Shown here: one piece after another, positions 7,427-23,784 of the stretch
Layout: every line of letters begins with the position of its first letter
How positions within the stretch are numbered: the first letter of the stretch is position 1
Assembly (NCBI GenBank): GCA_047605445.1
Contig: JASGFP010000002.1
Coordinates: 25,483-89,482, forward strand
Length of the DNA: 64,000 nucleotides
Direction of reading: 5' to 3'
Source of the DNA: Rhodoblastus sp.
GTDB lineage: Bacteria; Pseudomonadota; Alphaproteobacteria; Rhizobiales; Beijerinckiaceae
The notes under the pieces: model-generated
Told to the model about the DNA's origin: nothing
Seen by the model: only the letters and a program-made list of their open reading frames with translations
Databases searched by the model: none
Program-made: the position numbers and the translations under genes

Positions 7427-7922
7427 TCGCGCGGGCTACCGCATCGACGATTTCGCGCGCGACGGAACCCTCGCGGCCACGATCGCGCCGCTCGCCGAGC
7501 TCGACGCCGCGCTGGAGCAACGCGACAACAGGCCCATCGGCGTCGAGATCGCCAACAATACGGAAGTGCAGCGGCTTGCGCCGCTGTTCGACCGTCTCGC
7601 GCTGATCGCGATCGTGTTTCCCTCGTTCGGCGACGGTCGCGGCTTTTCGCTGGCCAAGCGGCTGCGTCGCGCCGGATACACGGGCCGGCTGCGCGCGGTC
7701 GGGCCTCTCATTCCCGATCAGGGCGCTTACGCTTTCGCCTGCGGCTTCGACGAGATCGAACTGCCGGACGCCGTCACCGCGCGTCAGACAGAAGCGCAAT
7801 GGCGAAAGGCGCTCGGCGCTATCAGCGCGACCTATCAACCCGGATATTTCCGGCCGAAAAGCATTCTCGAACGCCGGTTCGAGGCGCGGCGCGGCGCATC
7901 GGAGGAGGCGCGGCATGGGTGA
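7413..7922 (+). CDS. DUF934 domain protein (sulfite-reductase-associated oxidoreductase-like)
   Basis: Begins MKLLDRAGYRIDDF and contains FPSFGDGRGFSLAKRLR. It overlaps the cysI stop and the cysH start, the standard cysI-DUF934-cysH arrangement. Confidence 0.75.
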   Translation: MKLLDRAGYRIDDFARDGTLAATIAPLAELDAALEQRDNRPIGVEIANNTEVQRLAPLFDRLALIAIVFPSFGDGRGFSLAKRLRRAGYTGRLRAVGPLIPDQGAYAFACGFDEIELPDAVTARQTEAQWRKALGAISATYQPGYFRPKSILERRFEARRGASEEARHG

Positions 7923-8667
7923 CGAGGCCGCTTCTCTCGACCATGCATTCGCAGAGCTTAATCCGCTCGCACGCCTCAGACTGCTGCGTGCGCAGGTCGC
8001 CGGGCGCATCATTTTGACGACGAGCTTCGGGATCGAGGATCAGCTTCTCACCGATCTGATCTTCGCCAACGATCTCGATATCGAAGTCGTGACGCTCGAC
8101 ACCGGCCGTCTGTTTCCCGAGACCTACAAGGTCTGGTCCGAGACCGAGATGAAATACGGCCAACGCATCCGCGCTTTCTATCCGGATGCGGCCGCGCTCG
8201 AGGAATTGATCGCCGATCAGGGGATCGACGGCTTCTATTTCGGGGTGTCCATGCGCAAGGCCTGCTGCGGCGTGCGCAAAGTGGCGCCGCTCAATCGCGC
8301 GCTCGCGGGCGCGAGCGCCTGGGTGACGGGCCTGCGCGCCGATCAGTCCGCCAATCGCGCCGCAACCGCTTTCGTCGCGTTCGACACGGGCTTTTCCGTG
8401 CTGAAGGCGAGCCCACTGGCCGACATGTCGCGCGAGGCGATCGTGGCCGAGACGGAACGGCGCGCGATCCCGGTGAATATCCTGCACGCCAAAGGCTTTC
8501 CCTCAATCGGTTGCGCGCCGTGCACACGCGCGATCCTGCCCGGCGAGGACGAGCGCGCCGGCCGCTGGTGGTGGGAACAGGACGACAAGAAGGAATGCGG
8601 ACTGCACGTCGCAACGGACGGCGCCATCGTCCCGCGCGCAGGCGCCCCGATCGGAGACCGCCCGTGA
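7915..8667 (+). CDS. cysH: adenylyl-sulfate (APS)/PAPS reductase, thioredoxin-dependent, Fe-S type
   Basis: 250-aa ORF. The Cys pairs CC ([11 protein letters not shown]) and CxxC (SIGCAPCTR), plus KECGLH, are the cluster-binding signature of assimilatory APS reductases. Confidence 0.9.
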
Positions 8668-9566
8668 GCAAACTGACCCACCTGCAATCTCTCGAGGCGG
8701 AATCGATTTTTATTCTGCGCGAGGTCGCCGCGGCCTGCGAACGGCCTGTCCTGCTCTATTCGATCGGCAAGGATTCGGCGGTGCTGCTGCATCTGGCGAT
8801 GAAGGCCTTTGCGCCCGGCAAGCCGCCCTTCCCGCTGCTGCATGTCGATACGACATGGAAGTTTCGGGAGATGATCGAGTTCCGCGACGCGACCGCAAAG
8901 CGACTCGGCCTCGAACTGATCGTGCATACCAACCAGGAAGGCGTGGCCGCCGGAATCAACCCGATCGATTCCGGCTCCGCCGTCCATACCGATGTGATGA
9001 AGACGCAAGGGCTCAAGCAGGCGCTCGACAAATACGGCTTCGACGCGGCCTTCGGCGGGGCGCGGCGCGACGAGGAGAAGAGCCGCGCCAAGGAGCGCAT
9101 CTTCTCGCTGCGCTCGCCCGACCATCGCTGGGACCCGAAGGCGCAGCGGCCGGAGCCATGGCGCGCCTTCAACACGCGCAAGCGCAAGGGCGAGAGTTTT
9201 CGCGTGTTCCCGCTGTCGAACTGGACCGAGGCGGATGTGTGGGACTATATCGCGCTCGAAAACATCCCCGTCGTTCCGCTCTATTTCGCCAAGCGCCGGC
9301 CGGTGGTCGAGCGCAACGGCGCGCTGATCATGCGCGACGACGAGCGGATGCCGCTGTTGCCGGGCGAAGTCCCGCAGATGAAGCTCGTCCGCTTCCGCAC
9401 GCTGGGCTGCTATCCGCTGACCGGCGCCGTCGAAAGTTCGGCGGCCAGCCTTCCCGAGATCATCGCGGAAATGCGTGCATCGCGCTCCTCCGAACGCCAG
9501 GGCCGCGTCATCGACCATGACGGGGCGAGTTCGATGGAGCTGAAGAAGCAGGAAGGCTATTTCTGA
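8664..9566 (+). CDS. cysD: sulfate adenylyltransferase subunit 2
   Basis: GTG 8664 overlaps the cysH stop (GTGA). The product begins [21 protein letters not shown] and contains [13 protein letters not shown] (PP-loop); about 300 aa. Confidence 0.9.
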
Positions 9567-11197
9567 TGAGGCCGAATTTGAAGCTCGTGGACAGAACGGA
9601 CGAGACGACCGACGTGAACGACGTCGCGACCGTCGCCGCGCCGCAGCGCTCGCTTCTGCGCTTCATCACCTGCGGTTCGGTCGACGACGGCAAGTCGACG
9701 CTGCTCGGCCGCCTGCTGTTCGAGACTGGCTCGGTGTTCGACGATCAGCTCGAGGCGTTGAATCGCGACAGCGCGCGCTTCGGCACGACCGGCGAGGATG
9801 TCGATTTCGCGCTTCTCGTCGACGGCCTGTCGGCGGAGCGCGAACAGGGCATCACCATCGACGTCGCCTATCGCTATTTCCAGACGGGCAACCGCGCCTT
9901 CATCGCCGCCGACACGCCCGGCCACGAACAATATACGCGCAACATGGCGACCGGCGCCTCGACCGCCGACGTCGCGATCATTCTCGTCGACGCGCGCAAG
10001 GGGATCCTGCCGCAGACGCGCCGCCATTCGTATATCGTCTCCATGCTCGGCGTGCGGCGCGTCATCGTCGCCGTCAACAAGATCGATCTCGTCGGCTACG
10101 ACGAGAAGGTCTTCCGCAAGATCGAGGAAGATTACAGCGTGCTGGCGGCGCGCCTCGGCTTCGTCGAGACGGACATCATCCCGGTGTCGGCCCGTTACGG
10201 CGACAATGTCGTTTCGCAATCTCCCAACATGCCCTGGCGCAGGGGACGGACGCTGCTCGAACTGCTCGAGACGATCGAGGCCGCGCCAGCGGGCGATTCC
10301 GAGTTCCGACTGCCCGTGCAATGGGTCAACCGGCCGAACCTCGATTTCCGTGGCTTCTCGGGCACGATCGCCTCGGGAGAAATCTCCGTCGGCGACGCTA
10401 TCGTCGCGCTGCCGCGCGGCAAGACTTCCCGAGTGTCCGGCATTCTGGGGCCCTCGGGTCCGCAGGAGAGCGCCGGCGCGGGTGAAGCGGTCACCGTCAC
10501 GTTGTTCGACGAAATCGACATTTCGCGCGGCGATGTGATCCTCAGCGCCGGGTCGCGCGTGCGTCCGCGCCGCCAGATCGACGCGCGCCTGCTGGCGCTG
10601 ACAGAGACGCCGGTGACGCCGGGCCGCAATTATCTCGTCAAGATCGGAACGGCGGTCGCCGCCGCGCGGATCGTCGCGCTGCACCACGCCATCGACGTCC
10701 ACACTTACGAACCGGCGCCCGCCGCAAACCTGCCGATGAACGGCATCGGACTGGCGACGGTGCGCTTCGAGACCGACATCGTCGCCGCCAATTACGCCGC
10801 CTGCCAGTCGCTCGGCGGATTTCTGGTGATCGACCCGCATACCAACGACACGGTCGCGCTCGGCGTGATCGAGCCGCATGTCGATCACGACGCCGAAGCG
10901 CACGACGCGGGCGAGCACGTCCTCGCCACGCTCGAGAGCATTGGCGTGATCGAGCACGATGCGACGCCGGACGACCTGCGCCGACGCGCGATCGAAATCG
11001 CCGCCGGCGCCGCGCTCACGGGCGTCATCGCATTCGCGATCACATGGCGCTTCTGGCTCTCGCTCGCGGCGGTCGGGGCGGATATAGTGCTGCGGCCAGC
11101 GCTCGGGGTAGCCCTGCGCGGCGTCCGCTCCTGGTTGGCGACGCGGCGCAAAGCCAGAGCCGAGTCCGCGCTGACGACCGACGGCGGCGGCATCTGA
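9566..11197 (+). CDS. cysN: sulfate adenylyltransferase subunit 1 (GTPase) with hydrophobic C-terminal extension
   Basis: The ATG overlaps the cysD stop (TGATG). GTPase motifs GSVDDGKST, DTPGHEQY and NKID are present. The last ~100 aa are not CysC and contain two hydrophobic helices. Confidence 0.9.
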   Translation: MRPNLKLVDRTDETTDVNDVATVAAPQRSLLRFITCGSVDDGKSTLLGRLLFETGSVFDDQLEALNRDSARFGTTGEDVDFALLVDGLSAEREQGITIDVAYRYFQTGNRAFIAADTPGHEQYTRNMATGASTADVAIILVDARKGILPQTRRHSYIVSMLGVRRVIVAVNKIDLVGYDEKVFRKIEEDYSVLAARLGFVETDIIPVSARYGDNVVSQSPNMPWRRGRTLLELLETIEAAPAGDSEFRLPVQWVNRPNLDFRGFSGTIASGEISVGDAIVALPRGKTSRVSGILGPSGPQESAGAGEAVTVTLFDEIDISRGDVILSAGSRVRPRRQIDARLLALTETPVTPGRNYLVKIGTAVAAARIVALHHAIDVHTYEPAPAANLPMNGIGLATVRFETDIVAANYAACQSLGGFLVIDPHTNDTVALGVIEPHVDHDAEAHDAGEHVLATLESIGVIEHDATPDDLRRRAIEIAAGAALTGVIAFAITWRFWLSLAAVGADIVLRPALGVALRGVRSWLATRRKARAESALTTDGGGI

Positions 11198-11224
11198 CGT
11201 GACCCCGGCCGGCGATCCGGAACT

Positions 11225-12001
11225 ATGATGATCGATCCGCTCTATTCGCTGTCGGGCGCCGTCGTCGGCCTGATCGTCGGGCTCACGGGCGTCGGCGGCG
11301 GCTCTCTGATGACGCCGCTGCTCGTTCTGCTGTTCGGCGTGCATCCGGCGACGGCGGTCGGGACCGACCTGCTCTATGCGGCCATCACCAAGGGCGCCGG
11401 CACCTTCGTGCACGGGTCGCGGCGGAACGTGGACTGGCGCGTCGTTCGGCTGCTTGCGGCAGGCAGCGTGCCGGCGGCGACGGCGACTTTGCTGGCCATG
11501 TCCTGGAGCGGAACCGCTTCCGCGCAGGTGACGAAGCTCATCGGCGCCGCGCTCGGCGTGGCGCTGCTGCTGACCGCCCTGTCGATCGTCTTCCGGCCCT
11601 GGCTGCTGAAAGTTCGCGGTGAGCGGCCGCCTATGCCGCAGCGCCAGCTGGACTGGACGACTTTCGCCGTCGGCGTGACGCTCGGCGTGCTGGTGTCGAT
11701 GTCCTCGGTCGGCGCGGGCGCGCTTGGCGTGACCGTCCTTCTGATGCTCTATCCGGCGACGCCCGTTGTTCGCATCATCGGCACGGATATCGCCCATGCA
11801 GTCCCCCTGACCTTCGTCGCCGGCGCGGGCCATTGGCTGATCGGGTCGGTCGACGTGCACATGCTGCTGTCGCTGCTGCTGGGCTCGATCCCGGGAATCG
11901 TCATCGGCAGCCGGCTGGCGCCGCTCGTGCATGAACGATTTCTGCGCATGTTGCTCGCGGCCGTGCTCGCCCTCGTCGGGTTCAAACTGCTGGCGGTCTA
12001 G
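11225..12001 (+). CDS. TauE/SafE-family sulfite/anion exporter-like membrane protein
   Basis: 258 aa with 7-8 TM segments. Repeated G-x-G-G-G motif (LTGVGGGSLMTPLL, SSVGAGALGV) typical of TauE/SafE. Last gene of the cys operon. Confidence 0.8.
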   Translation: MMIDPLYSLSGAVVGLIVGLTGVGGGSLMTPLLVLLFGVHPATAVGTDLLYAAITKGAGTFVHGSRRNVDWRVVRLLAAGSVPAATATLLAMSWSGTASAQVTKLIGAALGVALLLTALSIVFRPWLLKVRGERPPMPQRQLDWTTFAVGVTLGVLVSMSSVGAGALGVTVLLMLYPATPVVRIIGTDIAHAVPLTFVAGAGHWLIGSVDVHMLLSLLLGSIPGIVIGSRLAPLVHERFLRMLLAAVLALVGFKLLAV

Positions 12002-12117
12002 GCGCCCGCGGCCGCACGGCCTGCCTTCTGGCGCTGCCGCTATCCGAAATACCGGCTTCCACATTCGGATCGCGGACTCTAGTCTTGGGGCGAGGCCATC
12101 GGAAGAACGGATGGGGC

Positions 12118-12819
12118 ATGGTCGTTCTCGTCAATTCGGGGCCGCGCGCGCCCGCCATCGACAAGGCTGCCGTACTTCGGCAGCACGAATTGTTTTGCGA
12201 GATCGACAAGGAGTCCTGCGACCAGATCGCGGCTTACGCCAAGGTTCGCGAGTTCCGGCGCGACGCCACGATCTTCTCGAAAGGCGACCCCGGCTTCTGC
12301 CTGTTCGCGGTGGTGCGCGGAAGCGTCCTCGTCACCACCTCGTCCAGCGAAGGCAAATGCGCCGTCCTCAATCAGTTCGACACGGGCGATGTCTTCGGCG
12401 AGATCGCCTTGCTGGACGGCCGCCCGCGCACCGGCGACGCGACGGCGCTCGTCGATTGTTCGTTGCTTGCGCTGGAGCGGCGCGACTTTCTTCCGATCCT
12501 CACGAAGAAGCCGGAGATCGCCATCAAGCTTCTTGAAATTCTATCCGGCCGGCTGCGTCGCACGACTGAGCAGGTCGAGGAGCTGATGTTCATGGATCTG
12601 CGCGGACGCCTGGCGAAGACGCTGCTGCGGCTGACGGACGGCGCTGCGAGCCGGTCCGCCGAATTGTCGCAGAGCGAATTGAGCCAGCGCGTCGGCATGT
12701 CGCGCGAGATGATCAATCGTCAGCTCCAGGTGTGGTCGCGCGACAGCGTCATCGAGCTCGCCCGCCGGCGGCTGACGGTGCTGCGGCCGGACGTGCTGGC
12801 CGAAATCGCGTCCCGCTGA
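12118..12819 (+). CDS. Crp/Fnr-family transcriptional regulator (cNMP-binding domain + HTH)
   Basis: Phosphate-binding-cassette-like FGEIALLDGRPRTGDATA and C-terminal HTH SQSELSQRVGMSREMINRQL with a CRP-type R-E-x-x-x-R recognition helix. No N-terminal Cys cluster, so not FNR-like. The first in-frame ATG is 12118; the ORF opens at TTG 12085. Confidence 0.85.
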   Translation: MVVLVNSGPRAPAIDKAAVLRQHELFCEIDKESCDQIAAYAKVREFRRDATIFSKGDPGFCLFAVVRGSVLVTTSSSEGKCAVLNQFDTGDVFGEIALLDGRPRTGDATALVDCSLLALERRDFLPILTKKPEIAIKLLEILSGRLRRTTEQVEELMFMDLRGRLAKTLLRLTDGAASRSAELSQSELSQRVGMSREMINRQLQVWSRDSVIELARRRLTVLRPDVLAEIASR

Positions 12820-12839: not shown

Positions 12840-12855
12840 AGTGAGGCGCCTCACA
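12840..12855. promoter_or_regulatory. candidate CRP-type operator aGTGA-GGCGCC-TCACa
   Basis: Perfect 14-bp palindrome GTGAGGCGCCTCAC at 12841-12854. It lies in the 123-bp gap between the crp-family gene and the giant ORF, about 95 bp upstream of ATG 12943. It matches the TGTGA-N6-TCACA core. Confidence 0.45.
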
Positions 12856-12942: not shown

Positions 12943-15900
12943 ATGCGCCGCGATTTGACGATGAAGACGGGCGGGCTCGCCGGAACATCCGATTTCCGAG
13001 TGCTCGCCAAGATCAAGAGCGGCTTCGTGCCGGCGCTGGACGCGGTGACCTACAAGACGCGCGTGAAACGTGTTCTTCGCGCGCTGCACATCGGCCGCTC
13101 GGATTCGCATGAGCACGAATTGTTCCGCGTGCTTTCCGATGCGGTGGAGCGCGTCGGCCGCATCCATTCGGTCGGCATCGTCGTGCTCGAACCCGAGGAC
13201 AAGGTGCTGCTGACCGTCACTTTCGACGGCTCGTGGGAGGCGTACGTCCGCGTAATCTGGCAGAAGGTGACGCGCCTGCTCGACCTCGTGTTCTGCAATA
13301 CCGAGGACTACGTCGTCGGCTACGAGAATTCGTATGAGAAATGGGGCGAGTGGCTGAAGGCCCACCAGAGCGAGGCCGCCTTTCTCTACGCGACTCCCAA
13401 CGTGACAGTGGACGACGTCCGCTATCTCAAGATGGCGGAGCGTGTGCACCGGCGCGCGGCCGCCGACGAGGCGCAACTGATCACGACGCGCATCCGCATT
13501 CCCTCCGCCGAGGATATAGCCACGAAATCGATCTTCGAATTCCGGGGCTCGGTTCCGGGCGACCCGACAAGCGCCGGCTTCGAGCAGAAGATGAATGTGG
13601 AAGACGCCGGAAAGGCGCCATTCCGCCACGGGGTGCGCGTGCTCGCCGGCATACACAGGCTGTCCGACGTCTATCTGCCTGATACCCACGACGGCGACAT
13701 TCTGCTGCGCGCCGCGCACGAACTGCTGCCGGAATTCGTGCCGATGGTGAAGGGGGCGACCTATCAGCTCGGCGTCCAGCGCGCCAAGCGCCGCTTCGAA
13801 GAGGCGGTGCTGTGGATTCAGGGCAAGGTGGACGAACCGCCCGTCCGGCAATCGCTGCCGAACCCGATCCCCGACGCGCCGCCGCTCGCCGATCCCGCCA
13901 ACGTGCAGGGCGGCATTTTGACGTCCTATCCCGACATCGACCACGGCTGCATGCTTCTGCTCCAGTTCCAGTCCGCCGCCGCCGTGGCCGCCTTTCTCGG
14001 TGCGCTGCAGACGACGACGGAAGCCGACACGCTCGCAGCCGGCGCGATCGCCGCCAATGTCGGATTCACGGTTGAAGGGCTGAGGATGGCGGGTCTGACC
14101 GACGACGAACTCCGCGAGTTGCCGGAAGAGTTCGTGCAGGGCATGGCGATGCGTGCGGGCATTCTCGGCGATGTCAGGATCAATCACCCGCAGCGCTGGC
14201 GCCTGCCCGCCGCCAACTGGTCCGAAGGGATAGACGCCGGAGAGCCGGACGACGCGCAAGCGGCGCCGCGTATCGATCTCAACGCCGTGCATGCGATCGT
14301 GCAATTGCGGCGGCGCGCGACGCCCGAGAGCACGGACGAGGATACGCCGACCGCCCGCGCTCCGCTGATGGAGGCGATGCAGAAGCTGACGGCGGCGCAC
14401 GAGGGCGTCATTCCGCTATCGCTGCAATGGATGCACCGGCTGCGCAATGCAAACAAAGTGGTTGAAGAGCACTTCGGCTTCACCGAAGGCAATTCGGAGC
14501 CAGTGCTGAAGAAGACGGACGCGGGCCGACGCTACTCCAACCAGATCCATCTCGGCGAGATGCTCTGCGGCTATCCCAATCTCGCCGATTCCTCCGACTT
14601 CTACAGCGGCGCTTCCGCGCGTATGCATCCGTTGCTCAAGGACGGCAGCTTCCTCGCCATACGCAAGCTGCGGCAGGACGTGGACGCCTTCGATACCACA
14701 TTGCAGGGCGCGGTCGCCGCCGTCAGCGCACAGGGATTCAACCTCGGCCGCGAAGATCTGATGGGCAAGATCCTCGGCCGCTGGCCAGCCGACCACGCGA
14801 AATCGGGGCAGCCGCTGGCGATCGTCATCGGCCCTGACCCGCTGTCGAACGATTTTCACTTCGACAAGGATCCGAATGGCGCGACCTGTCCGCTGCACGC
14901 GCATATCCGACGCACCAACCCGCGCTTCACGCAGCCCGAGGGCGGCCAGCGACCGCCGCGCATCGCGCGCCGCGGCATGTCCTACGGACCGCTGCACAAT
15001 CGCGCCGAGACCGACGAGGGGAAGAGGAAGGCAAGTCTGGCGGCCGAACGCGGCCTCGTGTTCATGGCCTACAACGCCAGCCTCGGAGAGCAATTCGAGG
15101 TTATCCAGAGCTGGATCGCGGGCGGAAACAGCGCCGGCAGCCATTCCGGCGTCAGCGACCCGCTTCTCGGCCTCGCGGAGCCGGGCAAGAAACGCTTCTA
15201 CCGTTTCGAACACGAGGGCAAGGTCGTGCACATGCCGCTCGACGGCGAAGACAAGCTGCATGTCGAGCCAAGGCCGTTCGTGCGCCTCGAATGGGGCGCA
15301 TATCTCTTCACGCCGTCGATCAAGGCGCTCGGCCTGCTGAAAGAGCGCGCGGCCGCGCGCGACGCCAAGCCATTGCTGCCGTGGACGGCGGAAGCCGGCG
15401 AGGAGAAGATCGCCGAATTGTTCGCATATGAGCGCGCCAACGGCGCGGAAGCGGCGCTCGACGCATGGAAGGCTGTTCTCGAGGATCCGGACTTCGCGGC
15501 GGACTACACGAGCGCGTCCGTATGGGCGGCCATTCGGGAAAATCACGGCGGCGTGCTGCGCACGCCCTTCGGCGTGCTTGTCGCGGACAAGGACATGGTC
15601 CGCGACGTCTTTGTCGACAGGGACGAAGCCTTGACCATCACGGGCTACCTGCCGCGCATGCACAGGTCGTTCGGCGTGCTCTATCTCGGGCTCGATCCCA
15701 ACCAGGAAGATCAAGCCTACGAAACGTGGTCGCGCGCGTGCAACGCGGCGATCATGGCGATCGATCCGCATCAGGCGTTTCTGGGCGCCCGCGCGGCCGT
15801 GCTCGACGCGCTGCAGACGCTCGCGGATCAGGAAAAGGCGGATGCGCTCTACGATCGAGAGAAACGCTGGGAGTTGACCGTCGAGTCGCGAGAACTGGTC

Positions 15901-17568
15901 GAGCCGCTGCTCGCGCATTTCTGTGAGGAATGGTTCGGCATCACGGAAAAAGGAAAGCATTTCAGGCGGGCCGGCTATCGCTGGGACTGGACGATGGATG
16001 AGCCCGCGAATTATCCGGGCCATTTTCTTTCGCCCTCCCGCTACATTTTCCAGCCGCATCCTGGCCGCAGCGTCGAGCGCTACGGCGCGGCGCACGGCCA
16101 GTCGGTGCGCAGCGCGATGGAGGCGTATCTCACCGCGTTCCGCGACGAGATCACGGCGCAGGTGTCGCGCGCCGTGCTCGACTGCCCCGAAGGCAGGGAC
16201 GACATAGATTTCTGCGCGCAGACGATCGCCGGCGCCATGATGGGCTTCATTCCGACGGTCGAAGGCAATCTGCGCCGCATCCTCAACGAATGGCTGCGCG
16301 ATGGCGTGCTCTGGAAATTGCGCGCACGCTACGCCGGCGCGCCCTCACAGGATTTCACCGCTGCCTGCAACCGGCTGGTGAACGATTTCATTCCCGCCTT
16401 CCAGTTGCGTGCGGTTCCGGAATTGATCTGGCGCACCGCTGTCACGTCCACGTCGATCGGCGCCGGTCCGCACAAGGTCCGCATCAAGCCGGGCGACGTG
16501 ATCGTCGCCGGCGCCGTGTCCGCCACGCAGCAATGTCTGACCGAGGGAAGCGGCGAATATCACCATGCCTTCGGCGGCAACCGGCGTGAGAAGGACCACC
16601 CGACGCATGCCTGTCCGGGCGCCGATCCGGCTGTTGCGCTCATGATCGGGTTCTTCAGCGCGCTGGTCGAATCGCCCCTGCCGTTGCGGCCGGGCCCGGG
16701 ACCGCTGACGATTTCGGCTGACGGCGCTGTGCTTGCGACGCCGGCCGTCCGCAAGCCTGTCGCGGCGCCCCGTCATTTCGTGGCCGCAGCAAGCAGCGAC
16801 GGGACGACGCCAATTCTGGTCATCGGCGATTCCTGGCTTTCGGATACGGCGCCCTACCCTAGCCTGCGCGGCGCGCTGGCCGGGCGCGGCTATGTCGACG
16901 AGTTCGATCAGGATTTCGCCTCGCTGGGCCGCTTCCTGCACGAGATGGCGTCGCCCGGAGCGCTCGATCAGGTCGCGCGCTTCTTCGACAATATCGGGCC
17001 GGGCGAGGCGTCTCCGGCCTGCATCGTGCTCGGCGGGGGTGGCAACGACGTGTGCCAACCCGTCTCGAACGTTCCGCTGACCGCGCTCTACCGCATGACT
17101 CGCGACCGCGGCGGACAAGGCGACGCGCTGATCGAGCAAGAGGTCGGCAAGTTCATCGACGAGGAATTGCATGGCCATCTGGCGACCGTCGTCGGACGGC
17201 TCCAGGAAATGACCGATATCCCGATCGTGGTGCACGCCTACGACCATCCGATTCCGAACGGCAGCGGATTCTGGCTCGGCGGCCCGTGGCTGAAACCGAT
17301 CTTCGATTACAGGTCGATGAACGATCTGCCGACGAATACCGCCGTGATGAAGGCGCTCATCGACCGGCTCAATGGCGCAGTCGCGCGCGTGGCGGCGGCC
17401 AATCCGCAGAAGGTCACGCATGTGAACCTGACCGGCACGCTCGCGAACGACGCGACGCTTTGGTCGAACGAGTTGCATCCCACGCGCGAGGGCTACGCGC
17501 TGCTGGCTGAAAAAATGGCCAAGGCGCTACAGGGGCTCGGCATCGGGCAGCCCGCCGCGCAAACCTGA
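12943..17568 (+). CDS. 1541-aa multidomain fusion: unknown N-terminal module + DyP-type heme peroxidase + P450-like heme-thiolate module + SGNH/GDSL hydrolase
   Basis: Single open frame 12841-17568. DyP motifs: QGGIL, FGFTEGNSEP, GSFLAIRKL, PLHAHIRRTNPR, IARRGMSYG, GLVFMAYNASLGEQFEVIQ, GAYLFTPS. P450-like motifs: AGAMMGFIPTVEG, PELIWR, HHAFGGNRREKDHPTHACPG. SGNH motifs: ILVIGDSW, LGGGGND, NELHPTREGY. Start set at ATG 12943 (GGGGGA upstream); GTG 12841 and ATG 12961 are alternatives. Confidence 0.85.
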   Translation: MRRDLTMKTGGLAGTSDFRVLAKIKSGFVPALDAVTYKTRVKRVLRALHIGRSDSHEHELFRVLSDAVERVGRIHSVGIVVLEPEDKVLLTVTFDGSWEAYVRVIWQKVTRLLDLVFCNTEDYVVGYENSYEKWGEWLKAHQSEAAFLYATPNVTVDDVRYLKMAERVHRRAAADEAQLITTRIRIPSAEDIATKSIFEFRGSVPGDPTSAGFEQKMNVEDAGKAPFRHGVRVLAGIHRLSDVYLPDTHDGDILLRAAHELLPEFVPMVKGATYQLGVQRAKRRFEEAVLWIQGKVDEPPVRQSLPNPIPDAPPLADPANVQGGILTSYPDIDHGCMLLLQFQSAAAVAAFLGALQTTTEADTLAAGAIAANVGFTVEGLRMAGLTDDELRELPEEFVQGMAMRAGILGDVRINHPQRWRLPAANWSEGIDAGEPDDAQAAPRIDLNAVHAIVQLRRRATPESTDEDTPTARAPLMEAMQKLTAAHEGVIPLSLQWMHRLRNANKVVEEHFGFTEGNSEPVLKKTDAGRRYSNQIHLGEMLCGYPNLADSSDFYSGASARMHPLLKDGSFLAIRKLRQDVDAFDTTLQGAVAAVSAQGFNLGREDLMGKILGRWPADHAKSGQPLAIVIGPDPLSNDFHFDKDPNGATCPLHAHIRRTNPRFTQPEGGQRPPRIARRGMSYGPLHNRAETDEGKRKASLAAERGLVFMAYNASLGEQFEVIQSWIAGGNSAGSHSGVSDPLLGLAEPGKKRFYRFEHEGKVVHMPLDGEDKLHVEPRPFVRLEWGAYLFTPSIKALGLLKERAAARDAKPLLPWTAEAGEEKIAELFAYERANGAEAALDAWKAVLEDPDFAADYTSASVWAAIRENHGGVLRTPFGVLVADKDMVRDVFVDRDEALTITGYLPRMHRSFGVLYLGLDPNQEDQAYETWSRACNAAIMAIDPHQAFLGARAAVLDALQTLADQEKADALYDREKRWELTVESRELVEPLLAHFCEEWFGITEKGKHFRRAGYRWDWTMDEPANYPGHFLSPSRYIFQPHPGRSVERYGAAHGQSVRSAMEAYLTAFRDEITAQVSRAVLDCPEGRDDIDFCAQTIAGAMMGFIPTVEGNLRRILNEWLRDGVLWKLRARYAGAPSQDFTAACNRLVNDFIPAFQLRAVPELIWRTAVTSTSIGAGPHKVRIKPGDVIVAGAVSATQQCLTEGSGEYHHAFGGNRREKDHPTHACPGADPAVALMIGFFSALVESPLPLRPGPGPLTISADGAVLATPAVRKPVAAPRHFVAAASSDGTTPILVIGDSWLSDTAPYPSLRGALAGRGYVDEFDQDFASLGRFLHEMASPGALDQVARFFDNIGPGEASPACIVLGGGGNDVCQPVSNVPLTALYRMTRDRGGQGDALIEQEVGKFIDEELHGHLATVVGRLQEMTDIPIVVHAYDHPIPNGSGFWLGGPWLKPIFDYRSMNDLPTNTAVMKALIDRLNGAVARVAAANPQKVTHVNLTGTLANDATLWSNELHPTREGYALLAEKMAKALQGLGIGQPAAQT

Positions 17569-17577
17569 CGAGCGCAC

Positions 17578-20500
17578 TCATCCTGCGGCGGCGAGCCGGT
17601 CTGCGTGCCAGTCCATCCCCATGGCGCGAAGCTGCGCGCGCGCATCGTCTGAGGCGGAAGAGCTTGCGTTCAACGCGGCGGCGGTCGCAGCGTTGAGCGC
17701 CGTCTCGCGCCGTGAGCCGCGCAGGCGCGCCGAAAGAGCAGCGCGATTCATCCAGCGCGCGATGTCGCTCGTACGGCCTTCCCTGGCCGCGATCGAGGCG
17801 AGGGCGCGGCTGATCGCCGCTTCGCCCAGCCGCTCGCCGTTGCGTGCGCGCCGGAGAACATGCGCGGCGTAACGCCTCGCGTTCTCGACATCGCCGATTT
17901 CGGCGCAGGCTTCGACCAGCCAGCTATACTGAACCGACACGAAGAATTTGAAGTCGCGGCCTTCCATCCAGCGGATTGCGTCGTGCAGCAGCCGCAGCGC
18001 ATCCGCATCGCCGGTGCGCCGCCAGCGCGCATAACCCGTCGCAGCGCGCGACGCCGCCAGCAGCAGCAGGCCGCGCATATCCTCGGCGATACGGCCGTTT
18101 TCTATGGCGAGGAGTTCGGCCTCGCGCCATGCGCCACGCCATATCAGAGACACGACCCGCCAATTGCTCATGGAATTGGCGACCGGGTGGCTGGAATCGC
18201 CGAGCAGCAATCGCGCCTGGTCGAAACAGGCGTCGGCGCGGACGAAATCGCCGCGATCCGCGAGAATGCTCGCCTCGCAGGACAGCGCGTAGGCGGAGCC
18301 GATGGCGACGCCGCCGCCGGGGCGCGCCGAGCGCTTTTTGGTGACGACGGCTTCGCCGATCAGCGCCAGCGCTTCGTCGTAGCGCCCGGCGGCTGCGAGG
18401 ATTTGCCCGAGCGTGGCGTCGACCTGCGCGATCAGCCGCGCGTCGCCAGCCTTGCGCGCGAGGTCCGCTGCCTCCCGCGCATGTGCGACGCCTTCCCGGA
18501 ACCGCCCGAACGCGTAGCACATATAGCCGAGCCAATAGGTCGCGCGCGCTTCGGCGTCGAGATCGCCGATCCCGCGCGCCAGTTCGGCGGCGCGTTCGAA
18601 CAGGCTCACGTCGTCGCGCAGCGACAGCGGGTCGAAGATGCTGGCCATGCCGAGCTTGTTGACGACGAGGCACCAGTGCAGATCGCGATCGCGGCCGCGT
18701 TCGGCGAGATTGTCCATCGCATCGAGCGCCGCCTTGTATTGCGTGCGCGCGCGATCCAGCGCGAAAGCGGAGGCGGCCTTGTCGCCGGCCTGTTCCGCGA
18801 AACGCGCGGCGGCGTCCCATTCGCCCGCGCCGAAGCTGTGATAGGCCAGCGCCTCGAACGCGTCATCGGGTTCGGCGCCCGCGCCGCCGGGCGCTTGGGC
18901 CGTCAAAACGCGCCTGTGGAGCGCGCGCCGCGTCGTCAGGCCGATCGATTCGTAGACGGAATCGCGCGTGACGCCGTGCTTGAACCGCAGACCGCCGCTC
19001 GCGGCGTCGATATAGAGGAAATCGGCCTCGGCAAGCGCGCGCAGCGTCGCCTGATCCGGCGCACGGCCACAAGCCGCGATCAGCGAACGATAAGGCGCGA
19101 CATTGCCGACGACCGCGGCCGCACGCACGACGTCGGCCTGATCTTCCGGCAATCGTTGCAATCGCGACGTCACCAGCGCGCCGATCCAGCCGCTGCGGCC
19201 CCGCGAGGCCAGAGCCTGCGACAGCTTCTCGGTCGAGGCGAGATGGCACAATTCCTCGATGTAGAGCGGCACGCCGCCGGCGTAATCGTGAATGCGCGCG
19301 ATCAGGAAGGGATCGGCCTGCGGCAGCCAGCGACGGACGGCGCGCGCCGTTTCCGCGCCATCGAAGGGTCGAAGCTCGACGTGCGGCGCGCCGGCGCCCA
19401 GATCAGCGCCTTCATGCCGCGCGCGGCTGGTCAGAAGGACACGCAGGCGAACATCGGCCTGAAGCAGCGCGGACACCAGCCGGCGCGTGGCGTCATCGGC
19501 CCATTGCCAGTCGTCGACGACCAGGGTTGCGCGCCGCTCGCCGGCGAGCGCCAGAACGAAGGCGCAGAGATCGTCGACCGCTCGGGTCGCTGCTTCGGCC
19601 GGCCGAATGTCGGGGCTCGTCACGAGGAGGCCGCGAATGGAGTCGACGCGCGGCCCCAGCGCAGGGCGCCAGGGTTCGAGCGCCGCGCGCGCGAGACCGA
19701 TCGCTTCCTCCGTCGACTGGCCGTCGCGCAGCCCGATGAAGCCGCGCATCATTTGCAGGAAAGGCTGCAGGATGGCGGCGCCGAGATAGTTCTCGCAGCC
19801 GCCGCGCAGGACGACCCCCTCCTCGCCGTCCAGCGAGGCGAGCACTTCTTCCGCCAATCGCGTCTTGCCGACCCCAGCACCGCCGAGGATCACCATCGCG
19901 CGCGGCGCAGGATCAGGATCGGTCACGAAATCGCGCAGCCGGCGAACGATGTCGCCGCGCCCGATGAAAGGCGTCAATCCGCGGCTCGCCGTCGATTCGA
20001 ATCGATTTGCAGCGGCGCTGCGGCCGAGCACGGTATGCACTGTCAGGTCGGGCCGGCCGCCGGCCTCCGGCGGCGCGCCATGCGTGAAGAAATGAGCGTT
20101 CGGACCGAGCGCGTCGCCGCTGGCCAGAATCTCCCCGGCCTGGGCGCGCTGCGACAGGCGCGCGGCGACATTCGGCACATCGCCGACCAGATCGAAAACG
20201 CCCTTTTCGATGTCGCCCGCGGCAATGAGCGCCATTCCGGCGTGGATGCCGGAATGCATCTGCAAAGGCGTCAGGCGCGGCGGCAGGCCTATCGGACGAA
20301 GCGCTGAAACCCGCTCGTGTATTTCCAGCGCCGCATCCGCCGCGCGGCGGCCGTCGTCCTCCCCGGGCTCCGGATAGCCGAAGATGATCGTCGCGCCGTC
20401 GCCCTGCATGCGTGCGATATGACCGCCGCGACTGACAGCCGCCGTCCGGCAAATCTCGCGAAGCTCATGAAGGAGAACCGAAAATTCCTCAGTCTCCATG

Positions 20501-20598
20501 TCGCGCCCAAGCGTCGTCGAGCCGACGAGATCCGTGAAAAGAATCGTCAGGCGACGCCGCACGGGTGTATTCGGCGCTGAGGGGGCGTGGGGGCTCAT
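17578..20598 (-). CDS. class III adenylate/guanylate cyclase domain + P-loop STAND/AAA ATPase + TPR-like repeats
   Basis: 1006 aa. Cyclase motifs at the N-terminus: LTILFTDLVGST, MQGDGATIIFG, GDVPNVAARL. Walker A at ILGGAGVGKTRLAEE. The C-terminal half is a long Ala/Leu/Arg-rich helical repeat region. No HTH is recognisable. Confidence 0.85.
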   Translation of the reverse strand: MSPHAPSAPNTPVRRRLTILFTDLVGSTTLGRDMETEEFSVLLHELREICRTAAVSRGGHIARMQGDGATIIFGYPEPGEDDGRRAADAALEIHERVSALRPIGLPPRLTPLQMHSGIHAGMALIAAGDIEKGVFDLVGDVPNVAARLSQRAQAGEILASGDALGPNAHFFTHGAPPEAGGRPDLTVHTVLGRSAAANRFESTASRGLTPFIGRGDIVRRLRDFVTDPDPAPRAMVILGGAGVGKTRLAEEVLASLDGEEGVVLRGGCENYLGAAILQPFLQMMRGFIGLRDGQSTEEAIGLARAALEPWRPALGPRVDSIRGLLVTSPDIRPAEAATRAVDDLCAFVLALAGERRATLVVDDWQWADDATRRLVSALLQADVRLRVLLTSRARHEGADLGAGAPHVELRPFDGAETARAVRRWLPQADPFLIARIHDYAGGVPLYIEELCHLASTEKLSQALASRGRSGWIGALVTSRLQRLPEDQADVVRAAAVVGNVAPYRSLIAACGRAPDQATLRALAEADFLYIDAASGGLRFKHGVTRDSVYESIGLTTRRALHRRVLTAQAPGGAGAEPDDAFEALAYHSFGAGEWDAAARFAEQAGDKAASAFALDRARTQYKAALDAMDNLAERGRDRDLHWCLVVNKLGMASIFDPLSLRDDVSLFERAAELARGIGDLDAEARATYWLGYMCYAFGRFREGVAHAREAADLARKAGDARLIAQVDATLGQILAAAGRYDEALALIGEAVVTKKRSARPGGGVAIGSAYALSCEASILADRGDFVRADACFDQARLLLGDSSHPVANSMSNWRVVSLIWRGAWREAELLAIENGRIAEDMRGLLLLAASRAATGYARWRRTGDADALRLLHDAIRWMEGRDFKFFVSVQYSWLVEACAEIGDVENARRYAAHVLRRARNGERLGEAAISRALASIAAREGRTSDIARWMNRAALSARLRGSRRETALNAATAAALNASSSASDDARAQLRAMGMDWHADRLAAAG

Positions 20599-20926
20599 AT
20601 CGTTTGGATCAACTCAGTGGGTCGGACTTTTCATCCCGTCTCCTTCGGAGCCGGCGGCGCGCCGCATCCGTCGAATGCCAATGCTACGCGGCAATTCATC
20701 GGATACCTATCCCTGCCGCAGGAATTACTATAGCGAAAGCGCGCGCTGTTTAGACCACGATCGCGCGTCCGAGCGGGGTCGGCGCCCCGCCGGTTCGTCG
20801 GGCCGTCCGATCCGGAAAATTGACGGCGCCGCCATCATCGTCGTCTATTTCGCCAAACTCACTCTGTCCGCACGCCGCCGCCCGTTCGCCAGCCGGCGCG
20901 CATTCGACCCAACGGGCCGCAGCGCA

Positions 20927-21913
20927 ATGATCGACCGATCGCAACGGATTCTTGTCACCGGCGGACGCGGCTTCATCGGCTCGGCGCTTGTCGCCGCGCT
21001 CGCCCAGGCCGGATTTGCGGTGCGCGCGGGCGTGCGTCGGCCGGCTCTGGCTTTGGATGTCGCCGCCGATCTCGACGACGCTGCGCAGACGCGCGCGGCT
21101 GTCGACGGCGCGGCGCTCGTCGTTCACACGGCCTATGGCGAGCCCGGCGCAATGGCGCGGCAATGCGCCGGCCTGCTCGCGGCGATGACGCAAGCGGGCG
21201 CCGACAGCCTCGTTTATTTCAGCTCGATCGCCGTCTACGGCGCGCGCGAGGGCGCCGTTTTCGAACACGACGCCGCCGTCGGCCCGCTCGACGCCTATGC
21301 ATCGGGTAAAGTGGCCTGCGAAGGCCTCGTCCATGCATGGGCCGGCGATCCCGCCCACGCCGACCGGCGCGCAATCATCGTGCGGCCAGGCGTCGTCTAC
21401 GGCGCCGGCAGCCGCTACTGGATCGACCGGCTCTCCCAGCGCATACGCGCGGGCATGTGGGGCGATCTCGGCGCTTCTGGCGAGGGAACGGCGCCGCTCA
21501 TCCATATCGACGATCTCGCCGACCTCTCGATCCGCGCCGCGCAGCGCCTGACGGGGCCGGGCGGCGACACGCTCCCGCGCGTCGTCGCGCTCAACGCGGT
21601 CGGGCTCGAGACGCCAAGTTGGAACGTCTATTTTCGGGCTCTGGCTGCGGCTGTCGGCGCGCCGGCCCTGCGCCCGCTCGACCCGGCGATACTCGCGCGG
21701 CAGGCGCCGCTCGCGCTCGCCGCCAAGGCGTGGCGACGACTCGGACTGCCGGGGTTCGAAAGGCAGGCGCTAATCCCGACGGGCGGCGAACTCGCCGTGT
21801 ATGCGCGCAAAGCGAATTACGACACCGGCGCCGCGCGCCAGCTACTCGACTTTTCCCCGCGCGTGACAATGGCCGAAGGTCTGCGCCGCTCGATACATCA
21901 AGCGCAAGGCTAA
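20927..21913 (+). CDS. NAD-dependent epimerase/dehydratase (SDR) family protein
   Basis: Begins MIDRSQRILVTGGRGFIGSAL (Rossmann GxxGxxG) and has a YASGK catalytic motif. Start ATG 20927 inside ORF 20498-21913. Confidence 0.8.
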   Translation: MIDRSQRILVTGGRGFIGSALVAALAQAGFAVRAGVRRPALALDVAADLDDAAQTRAAVDGAALVVHTAYGEPGAMARQCAGLLAAMTQAGADSLVYFSSIAVYGAREGAVFEHDAAVGPLDAYASGKVACEGLVHAWAGDPAHADRRAIIVRPGVVYGAGSRYWIDRLSQRIRAGMWGDLGASGEGTAPLIHIDDLADLSIRAAQRLTGPGGDTLPRVVALNAVGLETPSWNVYFRALAAAVGAPALRPLDPAILARQAPLALAAKAWRRLGLPGFERQALIPTGGELAVYARKANYDTGAARQLLDFSPRVTMAEGLRRSIHQAQG

Positions 21914-22955: not shown

Positions 22956-23780
22956 ATGGATAACGACATGACCGACCTGCACCCGCTCGATCTCGCGACA
23001 CGACTCGAGCGCGACGGAAATATCCTGCGCGGCGCGACGACGCCGGCCTATGCCAACATGGCCGGGCCGTTCGGCGGCGTGACGGCCGCCGCTCTGCTCA
23101 ACGCCGTGATGATCGACGAGCGGCGCCTTGCCGCTCCGATCGCGCTCACGGTCAATTTCTGCGGCGCCATCGCCGATGGCGCGTTCGAGATTTCGACGCG
23201 GCTCATACGCGGCGGCAAGAACACGCAGCACTGGTCGGTCGAACTCACCCAGAACGGCGCGACCGCCGCGACGGCGAGCATCGTCTGCGGCGTGCGCCGC
23301 CCGACATGGACGCATCTGCCGACCGCCGCGCCCAGGGCGCCTGCCTTCGCCGATGTGAAACCGCCGGATATTCCGCGCCCCATTTCCTGGGTGCAACGCT
23401 ACGACATGCGTTTCATCGACGGCGATCTCGGCAAATTCCCGCGCAGCGATGGATTGTTGCGCCCGGCGCGCTCCCTCGTCTGGCTGCAGGACGCGCCGGC
23501 GCGCCCGCTCGACTTTCTCTCTCTCGCCGCGCTCTCGGACACTTTTCTCGTGCGCATCATGGTGGTGCGCGGCACGTTCCAGCCGATGGCGACGGTGTCG
23601 ATGACGACTTATTTCCACGTGGGCGGCGATGAATTGGCGCGTCTCGGCGCAGCGCCTGTACTGGGCGACGCCAATGCCGACGTGTTCCACGATTGCTTCG
23701 CCGACCAGACCTGCGCATTGTGGAGCGAAGACGGCAGGTTGCTGGCCAACGGCGTGCAGGTCACCTGGTACAAGGAATGA
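22956..23780 (+). CDS. acyl-CoA thioesterase (TesB-like double hot-dog)
   Basis: About 274 aa. N-terminal NMAGPFGGVTAAALL resembles the thioesterase II family. It lies 10 nt after the hydratase gene and 4 nt before the dehydratase gene. ATG 22968 is an alternative start. Confidence 0.65.
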   Translation: MDNDMTDLHPLDLATRLERDGNILRGATTPAYANMAGPFGGVTAAALLNAVMIDERRLAAPIALTVNFCGAIADGAFEISTRLIRGGKNTQHWSVELTQNGATAATASIVCGVRRPTWTHLPTAAPRAPAFADVKPPDIPRPISWVQRYDMRFIDGDLGKFPRSDGLLRPARSLVWLQDAPARPLDFLSLAALSDTFLVRIMVVRGTFQPMATVSMTTYFHVGGDELARLGAAPVLGDANADVFHDCFADQTCALWSEDGRLLANGVQVTWYKE

Positions 23781-23784
23781 CGCC

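Follow-up and report, generated by a model that had tools for sequence, protein, structure and literature searches.

A conserved bacterial protein family joining a DyP-type peroxidase to a divergent P450-fold domain, encoded with a nucleotide cyclase and often a Crp-type regulator

In a stretch of 64,000 nucleotides from Rhodoblastus sp. (assembly GCA_047605445.1, contig JASGFP010000002.1, positions 25,483 to 89,482; called the window below, with all positions counted from its first letter unless a locus is named), one open reading frame (ORF) on the plus strand, 12943-17568, encodes an enzyme of 1541 amino acids in which a family-specific N-terminal domain, a complete DyP-type heme peroxidase, a highly divergent cytochrome-P450-fold domain and an SGNH/GDSL hydrolase are joined in a single polypeptide. 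We have found that this enzyme represents a real, widely conserved and unstudied family, and that the enzyme, a convergently encoded nucleotide cyclase and a Crp-type transcription factor make up a large, uncharacterised and co-inherited three-gene system around a new, putatively diheme architecture. Neither a DyP-P450 fusion nor the enzyme/cyclase/Crp trio was described in the literature searched; the new elements are the combination, the folds and the coupling, while peroxidase-P450 diheme fusions and regulons controlled by a cyclic nucleotide monophosphate (cNMP) and Crp are already known. The initial annotation of this DNA, made from the sequence alone, had described the four-part protein as a singular oddity and lacked its genomic context, that is the convergent cyclase-STAND partner, the Crp/Fnr regulator and the conserved CRP operator.

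The single uninterrupted frame on which that annotation was built was borne out, since 1541 codons without an internal stop lie between ATG 12943 and the TGA at 17566-17568. The longest possible reading of the gene begins at GTG 12841; ATG 12943 is nevertheless the likely start, because the consensus of the family opens with MRRDL (MRRDLTIKT). The enzyme is 100% identical to P0001, a database protein of a Rhodoblastus sp. metagenome-assembled genome (MAG), and it has more than 100 full-length relatives with identities down to 44%, which the public databases label only as 'Dyp-type peroxidase', 'GDSL-type esterase/lipase', 'EfeB' or 'hypothetical'. No transmembrane segment or signal peptide was detected in the enzyme, which is therefore read as cytoplasmic, in agreement with the first impression. 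The conserved Met-Arg-Arg at residues 1-3 (12943-12951) resembles the start of a twin-arginine (Tat) motif. Tat export was considered as well and seems unlikely: the first 60 amino acids contain no hydrophobic h-region (maximum Kyte-Doolittle value 0.86), and the AlphaFold2 (AF2) model places a beta-strand at residues 15-24.

It had to be considered whether a frame-fusing assembly error, or a chance ORF in GC-rich DNA, has joined genes that are in fact separate. The window is indeed MAG sequence (P0001 carries the label 'MAG: ... Rhodoblastus sp.'), and long spurious ORFs are plentiful in GC-rich DNA; at about 65% GC the window itself has many of them in other frames. However, in a survey of one genome per species 56 loci were found, and 48 of these, including isolate and complete genomes such as those of B. 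xenonodulans (CP089391), B. cajani and P. sakaiensis 201-F6, contain the same fusion as a single intact ORF of 1271-1637 amino acids, which excludes an assembly artefact and answers the earlier proposal to look for the fusion elsewhere. When modules 1 and 3 were combined in an exhaustive HMMER search, 873 clusters at 50% identity were recovered, 425 of them at E<=1e-30; instead of an oddity there is a large family, and its catalytic residues are invariant. Natural split versions as adjacent genes were absent among the surveyed loci. The rare frame breaks, at seven loci, all sit within modules and not at module boundaries; six are in 'MFD' or 'np1-np2' MAG assemblies, the seventh is a decayed gene of which a module 3 fragment is left, without SGNH domain or partner (L059, 8149-8934), and they are read as indel errors or decay. 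The artefact hypothesis is thus refuted, and we give it practically no weight.

The alphaproteobacterial loci belong to Rhodoblastus, Methylobacteriaceae, many Bradyrhizobium species and Acetobacteraceae, and those of the Burkholderiales to Rhodoferax, Polaromonas, Methylibium, Ideonella, Piscinibacter sakaiensis 201-F6 and a plasmid of Variovorax sp. WS11 (L055). A second plasmid-borne copy was observed on pDB-1 of Sphingopyxis sp. DBS4 (L063, 4978-14071), where a Tn3-family transposase abuts a truncated enzyme gene. This copy of 809 amino acids comprises the C-terminal half of the DyP domain and the P450 fold; the cyclase-AAA-TPR partner and a Crp/Fnr gene are intact, and mercury-resistance genes lie alongside. 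Since pDB-1 is a mobilizable plasmid, the enzyme system can travel on plasmids.

The assignment of module 2 (amino acids 313-803, 13879-15351, plus strand) as a complete DyP-type heme peroxidase, already made in the initial annotation, was substantiated by Pfam, by alignments with proteins of the PDB and by conservation. Pfam Dyp_perox_C (PF20628) gave 27.0 bits against a cut-off of 20, TIGR01413 gave E 6.8e-20 and 71.6 bits, under its cut-off of 100.5, and PDB DyPs (8re3, 4g2c, 7anv) matched amino acids 320-423 and 510-801 with E-values down to 7.4e-24. The PDB relatives are of the C/D type, namely 8re3, DyP2 (4g2c), an ancestral D-type enzyme (7anv) and fungal DyPs, and in these alignments module 2 is closest to the C/D-type (class V) DyPs. 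Residue conservation was counted throughout on 49 family sequences of about 35-100% identity. The proximal His654 (codon 14902-14904), Arg676 and Arg677 are each present in 49 of 49, and the AHIRRxNPR stretch of the family aligns with SHIRRMNPR of 8re3. The GxxDG motif of DyPs reads GFTEG here, so that the distal acid, Asp in known DyPs, is Glu515 (codon 14485-14487); position 515 is Asp in 36 and Glu in 13 family sequences, and the exchange is by its chemistry a conservative one. Like Amycolatopsis DyP2, 8re3 and the fungal class V enzymes, module 2 has both ferredoxin-like halves, the His and the Arg, and at the position of the GxxD/EG acid it has a Glu. In contrast to known DyPs, which stand alone with about 300-500 amino acids (or occur as encapsulin cargo or Tat substrates), it is an internal domain of a 1541-residue protein.

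Module 3 (amino acids 804-1270, 15352-16752, plus strand) could not be recognized by conventional sequence searches: Pfam, PF00067 included, gave no match to amino acids 802-1286 even at E<=10, and phmmer against the PDB gave no match to module 3 and hence no P450. An AF2 model built from 68 family sequences reached a predicted local distance difference test score (pLDDT) of 92.4 and a predicted template modelling score (pTM) of 0.89, and Foldseek matched it to 1407 PDB chains at E<=1e-3, of which the top 50 were all P450s with probability 1.00 and template modelling scores (normalized to the target) up to 0.71. In the model a 33-residue helix (I) is followed by J, K, beta, K', meander, Cys loop and L in the canonical P450 order, and the long L helix begins three residues past Cys1224. 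Additionally, a profile of 26 module 3 sequences found 18 sub-threshold matches in the PDB, 16 of them P450s (E 0.2-1.5); these weak matches all align on one C-terminal stretch, and in the two alignments inspected the H-x-C-P-G motif (HaCPG) sits on the HHCLG and HFCPG of the P450s 4z5q and 6vxv. The putative thiolate ligand Cys1224 (codon 16612-16614) lies within this motif, whose residues H1222, C1224, P1225 and G1226 are invariant (49 of 49 each), as are F1210, P1104 and T1105. Module 3 is, by its modelled fold and the alignment of its putative Cys ligand, a P450-fold domain, and the P450 fold thus reaches into sequence space that the profile databases miss. The P450 call made earlier from motifs was in this way confirmed, except that the domain is about 470 and not about 390 amino acids long.

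The details of this domain depart from those of ordinary P450s. A 7-residue insertion separates FGG from HxCPG in the Cys pocket. The I-helix reads A-G-x-x-x-G-F-x-P-T, with Thr1105 directly after the invariant Pro1104, and the acid-alcohol pair of the (A/G)Gx(D/E)T motif is absent from the 49-sequence alignment, which is what one would predict for a P450 that dispenses with O2 activation by external electrons. The PELIWR segment, quoted earlier among the P450-like features, is not the ExxR motif. By its register, which was taken from the E-x-L-R-x-x-P pattern and not from structural superposition, the K-helix motif is [M/F]1153-Q-L-R1156, with the Arg kept in 48 of 49 sequences and the Glu replaced by Met (37) or Phe (11); module 3 therefore retains the Arg of ExxR and has lost the Glu. 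The P450s that use peroxides (CYP74 allene oxide synthases and hydroperoxide lyases, CYP5A1, CYP8A1 and CYP152) resemble module 3 in fold, Cys ligand and the lack of the acid-alcohol pair; they need no reductase, and the same is proposed for module 3. CYP152 enzymes have Arg-Pro at the acid-alcohol position of the I-helix, where this family has the invariant Pro-Thr. The lost ExxR Glu, the insertion and the absence of detectable sequence similarity set module 3 apart from the known CYP families, and no counterpart of the I-helix Asn of CYP74/CYP8A or of the CYP152 Arg could be assigned in it. The Foldseek ranking, with BioI, BM3 and other fatty-acid P450s near the top, was not used to deduce a substrate, because the E-values are indistinguishable.

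The SGNH/GDSL assignment of module 4 (amino acids 1285-1541, 16795-17565, plus strand) holds: Pfam Lipase_GDSL_2 (PF13472) scored 36.9 bits, above its cut-off of 32.9 (E 3.4e-10 for the module by itself), and the key residues are conserved, Ser1297 of GDSW (codon 16831-16833) in 38 of 38 sequences, Asn1368 of GGND in 35 of 37 and His1512 of ELHP in 36 of 36. The block V acid is shifted, N-E-L-H standing in place of DxxH. The codons that the initial annotation had given for Ser1297, Cys1224 and His654 were all correct, and every motif quoted there was found at its residues.

The lipase is not integral to the family. Among the domain layouts of 268 family proteins, module 1-DyP-P450-SGNH occurs 141 times and module 1-DyP-P450 without a lipase 89 times; in two proteins (P0233 and P0246) an N-terminal patatin-like phospholipase replaces the SGNH domain (Pfam Patatin, E 2.5e-16 and 7.9e-17, with the DGGGVRG, GNSSG and DGG motifs intact), and the remainder look like fragments. 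The conserved core is module 1-DyP-P450, the lipase is accessory, and lipolytic domains of two unrelated folds have been joined to this core at opposite ends. The picture of a self-contained enzyme thus applies to the protein of the window, which has its own SGNH domain, and not to the family as a whole. The exchange of SGNH for patatin suggests that the core works on what the lipase releases, that is on a lipid-derived substrate; the earlier suggestion of a de-esterified lipid gains support from it as a predicted substrate, and we consider a lipid-derived substrate somewhat more probable than not. A separate patatin/DUF3734 gene was also seen about 5 kb upstream of one enzyme gene (L004, 1085-2266); it is not conserved elsewhere.

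Module 1 (amino acids 1-312, 12943-13878, plus strand), described initially as about 310 amino acids without a nameable motif, remained so, with no Pfam, NCBIfam or fold match. It always stands N-terminal to the DyP domain, and it holds many invariant Arg and Asp residues. In the model (pLDDT 73.9, pTM 0.71) a ferredoxin-like beta-alpha-beta-beta-alpha unit is followed by a helical bundle. Foldseek found no PDB match at E<=1e-3; the partial ferredoxin-like matches (an HMG-CoA reductase subdomain and ABM proteins, best E 0.11) and the best hit of a profile search against the PDB (prefoldin, E 0.24) were uninformative. An internal duplication was considered too, and as comparison of the module profiles with one another by hhalign reached a probability of 1% at best, module 1 is not a detectable extra DyP half.

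The enzyme gene is followed by a convergent gene. On the minus strand, 17578-20598, it encodes a protein of 1006 amino acids that combines a class III nucleotide cyclase, an AAA_16 (STAND-type) ATPase and a tetratricopeptide repeat (TPR) sensor (Pfam Guanylate_cyc, E 2.5e-10; AAA_16, E 9.2e-23; TPR_12), the sensor region giving TPR_MalT-type matches. This partner is present, and always convergent, at 51 of the 53 distinct loci with enough downstream DNA. The two loci without it are the decayed copy mentioned above and a short MAG contig (L020, 5155-6513); on the latter an unrelated convergent ORF of 399 amino acids follows an intact enzyme gene. The partner also stands next to the patatin variant (about 35% identity) and on the Sphingopyxis plasmid (27% identity), and its identities co-vary with those of the enzyme (r=0.97, n=52). 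In the window the two genes are arranged tail to tail with their stop codons 9 nucleotides apart (17566-17580), elsewhere the ORFs overlap by 4-46 nucleotides (L001 12763-12788, L004 11664-11677, L005 11797-11800, L063 10383-10428), and no terminator was seen between them. With such a gap or overlap and no terminator the two transcripts must overlap at their 3' ends, and a coupling of enzyme and partner by antisense or transcriptional interference is possible.

Alignment with CyaB and CyaC showed that the cyclase keeps both metal-binding Asp residues as well as the transition-state Asn and Arg. Arg (aRMQGD, partner residues about 55-62) takes the place of the Lys that specifies adenine, and Asp (FDLVGD, residues about 128-136) stands at the second specificity position, which makes the nucleotide product (cAMP, cGMP or other) uncertain. 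The domain order cyclase-AAA_16-TPR is shared with mycobacterial Rv0386-type proteins and the cyclase part of the TIGR03903 TOMM kinase/cyclase; the partner differs from these in having no LuxR helix-turn-helix (HTH) or kinase domain and in being tied tail to tail to one enzyme gene.

The third member of the system is a Crp/Fnr-family transcription factor with a cNMP-binding domain and a Crp-type HTH, encoded directly upstream of the enzyme (12085-12819, putative start, plus strand; Pfam cNMP_binding, E 1.5e-20; HTH_Crp_2, E 7.8e-12), whose best NCBIfam match, CRP, with E 6.8e-27, is under the cut-off. A Crp/Fnr gene is adjacent to the enzyme gene in at least 6 distant clades: an orthologous or analogous regulator was seen in the Rhodoblastus/Methylobacteriaceae clade, at locus L036, in Rhodoferax, Polaromonas, Methylibium and Piscinibacter sakaiensis, and in an Acetobacteraceae MAG, and on the Sphingopyxis plasmid the Crp/Fnr gene adjoins the partner. 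The crp-enzyme intergenic region contains, about 90 bp ahead of the ATG, the predicted CRP-type palindromic operator AGTGAGGCGCCTCACA (12840-12855), which has one mismatch to TGTGA-N6-TCACA and is the only site with at most one mismatch in the whole window. At -90 to -135 such sites with up to two mismatches were found at 40 of 56 loci against a background of 4.0%, and with up to one mismatch at 24 of 56 against 1.0%, an enrichment of 10- to 40-fold; nine loci without an adjacent crp gene have perfect TGTGA-N6-TCACA sites. Consensus scans for promoters and terminators between 12780 and 12960 gave no match. A CRP-type operator is, as judged from these predicted sites, conserved upstream of the enzyme gene in Alphaproteobacteria, and control of the enzyme gene by cNMP and Crp is probable. 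There is a precedent in Sinorhizobium meliloti, where cyclases and the Crp-like Clr drive a target gene of unknown function (PMC4222275); compared with such rhizobial cyclase-Clr circuits, the operator found here is of the CRP consensus type.

Taking these data together, we tentatively propose that the protein is a cytoplasmic, reductase-independent diheme enzyme acting on a substrate derived from a lipid ester under dedicated cNMP-Crp control, and as a composite we rate this model as plausible, at a little less than an even chance. A fatty acyl or lyso-lipid substrate would be set free by the lipase domain or, where the protein has none, by another lipase encoded separately. The P450-fold domain would then work by peroxide or hydroperoxide chemistry in the manner of the self-sufficient CYPs, to which CYP74, CYP5A1/8A1 and the CYP halves of the fungal dioxygenase-cytochrome P450 (DOX-CYP) fusions belong; this is suggested because a reductase domain, a conserved redox-partner gene and the I-helix acid-alcohol pair are all lacking, and no conserved ferredoxin or reductase gene was present in the neighbourhoods examined. 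The DyP domain may make, prime or consume the (hydro)peroxide, and both hemes together could turn the fatty acid into an oxygenated, oxylipin-like product. The STAND-TPR cyclase would sense a cue, possibly the substrate or the product, and make cAMP or cGMP, upon which the Crp-type factor would bind the operator at 12840-12855 and activate the enzyme gene.

Several observations weigh against this proposal. Module 1 was left unexplained by the Pfam, NCBIfam, Foldseek and profile-against-PDB searches. The divergence of module 3 (no Pfam match, the lost Glu of ExxR, the 7-residue insertion) means that heme-thiolate chemistry cannot be taken for granted. DyPs are not known to dioxygenate fatty acids. 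One third of the family has no lipase domain, and SGNH and patatin domains also cleave non-lipid esters. As regards regulation, a co-divergence of r=0.97 is also the outcome of plain vertical inheritance of neighbours, a convergent orientation is unusual for a regulator and its target, and the Burkholderiales loci contain neither a CRP-consensus site nor a shared palindrome.

The nearest analogues are the fungal DOX-CYP enzymes (Ppo or linoleate diol synthases, 8- and 9-allene oxide synthases, epoxy alcohol synthases), which likewise carry two heme domains in a single polypeptide, a His-ligated peroxidase-type domain followed by a Cys-ligated P450 without a reductase (the heme sites being predicted in our case), and which convert a free fatty acid to an oxylipin signal. 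The CYP partners in such self-sufficient fusions keep the 'HxC' of the bacterial FGxGxHxCxG pocket, and the P450 half of DOX-CYP, as here, retains 'HxC' and lacks the conventional proton-relay pair (PMC13049297). On the other hand, the peroxidase half is here a DyP, a dimeric alpha+beta barrel unrelated to the peroxidase-cyclooxygenase fold, and no An_peroxidase match was found in the enzyme; the P450 half is invisible to Pfam, an N-terminal module and a lipase are added, and the hosts are bacteria. The enzyme is consequently at most an analogue of DOX-CYP and not a member, because its heme peroxidase domain is a DyP, and oxylipin-synthase chemistry like that of Ppo is possible though rather doubtful.

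Two other systems use a comparable logic. A bacterial precedent is P. aeruginosa, in which heme enzymes of a peroxidase family, the 10S-DOX PA2077 and the 7,10-diol synthase PA2078, turn fatty acids into hydroperoxides and diols with a signalling role in oxylipin-dependent quorum sensing (PMC4496055, PMC6377657, PMC5155153). This oleate-diol synthase has the two steps, the two heme enzymes and the dedicated regulator that we propose here; it differs in consisting of two separate periplasmic homologues of di-heme cytochrome c peroxidase with CXXCH motifs, and it involves no DyP, P450, fusion, lipase or cyclase-STAND partner. In corals and cyanobacteria, fusions of a catalase-related allene oxide synthase with a lipoxygenase join an oxygenating to a hydroperoxide-converting heme domain for oxylipins (PMC5617202), but there a non-heme-iron lipoxygenase is combined with a heme domain of catalase fold, and DyP, P450 and lipase are missing. 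One may also imagine a self-contained autoinducing loop in which the DyP forms the fatty-acid (hydro)peroxide, the P450 makes the oxylipin and the STAND-TPR cyclase is the receptor for the oxylipin or its precursor; cAMP or cGMP would then reach the operator by way of the Crp-type factor, and might in addition have an allosteric effect by way of module 1 with its many Arg and Asp residues. We regard this version as improbable. If it were true, a peroxidase fold would have been recruited independently for the formation of fatty-acid (hydro)peroxides a third time, the two earlier cases being COX/Ppo and the di-heme cytochrome c peroxidase homologues of Pseudomonas.

The same domains could serve other purposes. 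If the lipase excised peroxidised acyl chains and the hemes reduced or rearranged the hydroperoxides, the product would be waste, and the enzyme would act in the repair or detoxification of lipid peroxides, induced through cNMP and Crp when the STAND cyclase senses oxidative or membrane stress. The domain evidence for this is the same as for the composite model, DyPs are bona fide peroxide-consuming enzymes and every one of the closest PDB relatives of module 2 carries a peroxidase annotation, the location in the cytoplasm agrees with repair, and stress-type inducible control through a dedicated sensor would fit. However, detoxification enzymes do not usually come with anything as elaborate as a cyclase-STAND sensor that is co-inherited across classes, the conserved gene set does not encode the reductant that a peroxidase requires, and the reduction of hydroperoxides alone needs no two different heme centres; repair is in our opinion unlikely. 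Lipids might also not be involved at all: an aromatic ester of plant or lignin origin, or a secondary metabolite, could be de-acylated by the esterase, oxygenated or demethylated by the P450 and oxidised at a phenol by the DyP. The best-known reactions of DyPs are oxidations of dyes, phenolics and lignin-model compounds, as the names of the PDB entries reflect, many SGNH hydrolases are carbohydrate and aromatic esterases, and Bradyrhizobium, Variovorax and Piscinibacter sakaiensis are hosts from soil and rhizosphere. Yet the swap for a patatin-like phospholipase speaks for acyl-lipid substrates, the protein is cytoplasmic and has no secretion signal, no transporter, ring-cleavage or biosynthetic genes are conserved alongside, and the redox partner of a conventional monooxygenase P450 is absent, so that we think a non-lipid ester pathway has a rather small chance of being correct.

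A role in defence by abortive infection would assign the detection of an invader to the STAND-TPR protein, which would make a cyclic nucleotide sensed by module 1, whereupon lipase and hemes would destroy membrane lipids. Defence systems often contain STAND NTPases with TPR sensors as well as cNMP cyclases, the cyclase domain found here matches the Pycsar PycC models (E 3.6e-11), the enzyme and partner genes are tightly coupled, one copy lies on a mobilizable plasmid beside transposases, and the unexplained module 1, rich in invariant Arg and Asp, leaves room for such a sensor. Nevertheless, the PycC matches reflect the generic cyclase domain and the enzyme has no PADLOC match, while the Crp-type factor, like the partner, gave only generic domain matches there; it is this transcription factor, and no effector, that carries the cNMP-binding domain, which is not the Pycsar arrangement, and this factor together with the conserved CRP operator suggests transcriptional rather than allosteric control. 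Furthermore, the divergence of the family follows taxonomy, and the Bradyrhizobium loci lie in stable metabolic neighbourhoods and not in defence islands. A catalogue of STAND conflict systems also lists no peroxidase, P450, patatin or SGNH effector (PMC7159879), and defence is accordingly very improbable.

To our knowledge, DyPs still have no generally accepted physiological substrate. Here a DyP is found in a defined genetic context, with a lipase, a predicted thiolate-heme partner domain and a cNMP sensor and regulator, which offers a testable route to a native DyP function. The enzyme is a strong candidate for a new pathway of lipid oxidation or lipid signalling in bacteria and a candidate two-heme biocatalyst without a reductase, and its hosts include agriculturally and environmentally important bacteria (Bradyrhizobium, Variovorax, Rhodoblastus and the poly(ethylene terephthalate)-degrading Piscinibacter/Ideonella sakaiensis). 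If the signalling interpretation were true, a second bacterial oxylipin communication system would be at hand, together with a ligand for an orphan class of STAND cyclases.

Apart from partner and regulator, the neighbours vary between loci. In the window a sulfate-assimilation cluster lies upstream (5756-12001, plus strand), consisting of a sulfite reductase hemoprotein (NIR_SIR, 5756-7426), two PAPS_reduct proteins, cysH-like (7915-8667) and cysD-like (8511-9566), a cysN-type GTPase (9566-11197) and a TauE/SafE sulfite exporter (11225-12001), all on the plus strand. The cluster also precedes the trio in a Methylobacteriaceae MAG (L006) and not in Bradyrhizobium or Burkholderiales; being confined to close relatives, it probably reflects lineage synteny and stands outside the system. 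Beyond the partner, a gene of the NAD-dependent epimerase/dehydratase family (20498-21913) and an ilvD-type dihydroxy-acid dehydratase gene (23629-25491), both on the plus strand, are ordinary housekeeping genes with no link to the system. At one locus a TIR_2-domain gene was noticed about 6.5 kb upstream of the enzyme (L005, 1-337), which is not conserved elsewhere. In an alphaproteobacterial MAG (L024, 4540-5361) the gene immediately preceding that of the enzyme encodes a YmdB-like metallophosphoesterase (Pfam E 3e-101). Members of this family are reported to hydrolyse 2',3'-cyclic nucleotides as phosphodiesterases, and at this one locus the gene is possibly linked to cyclic-nucleotide turnover.

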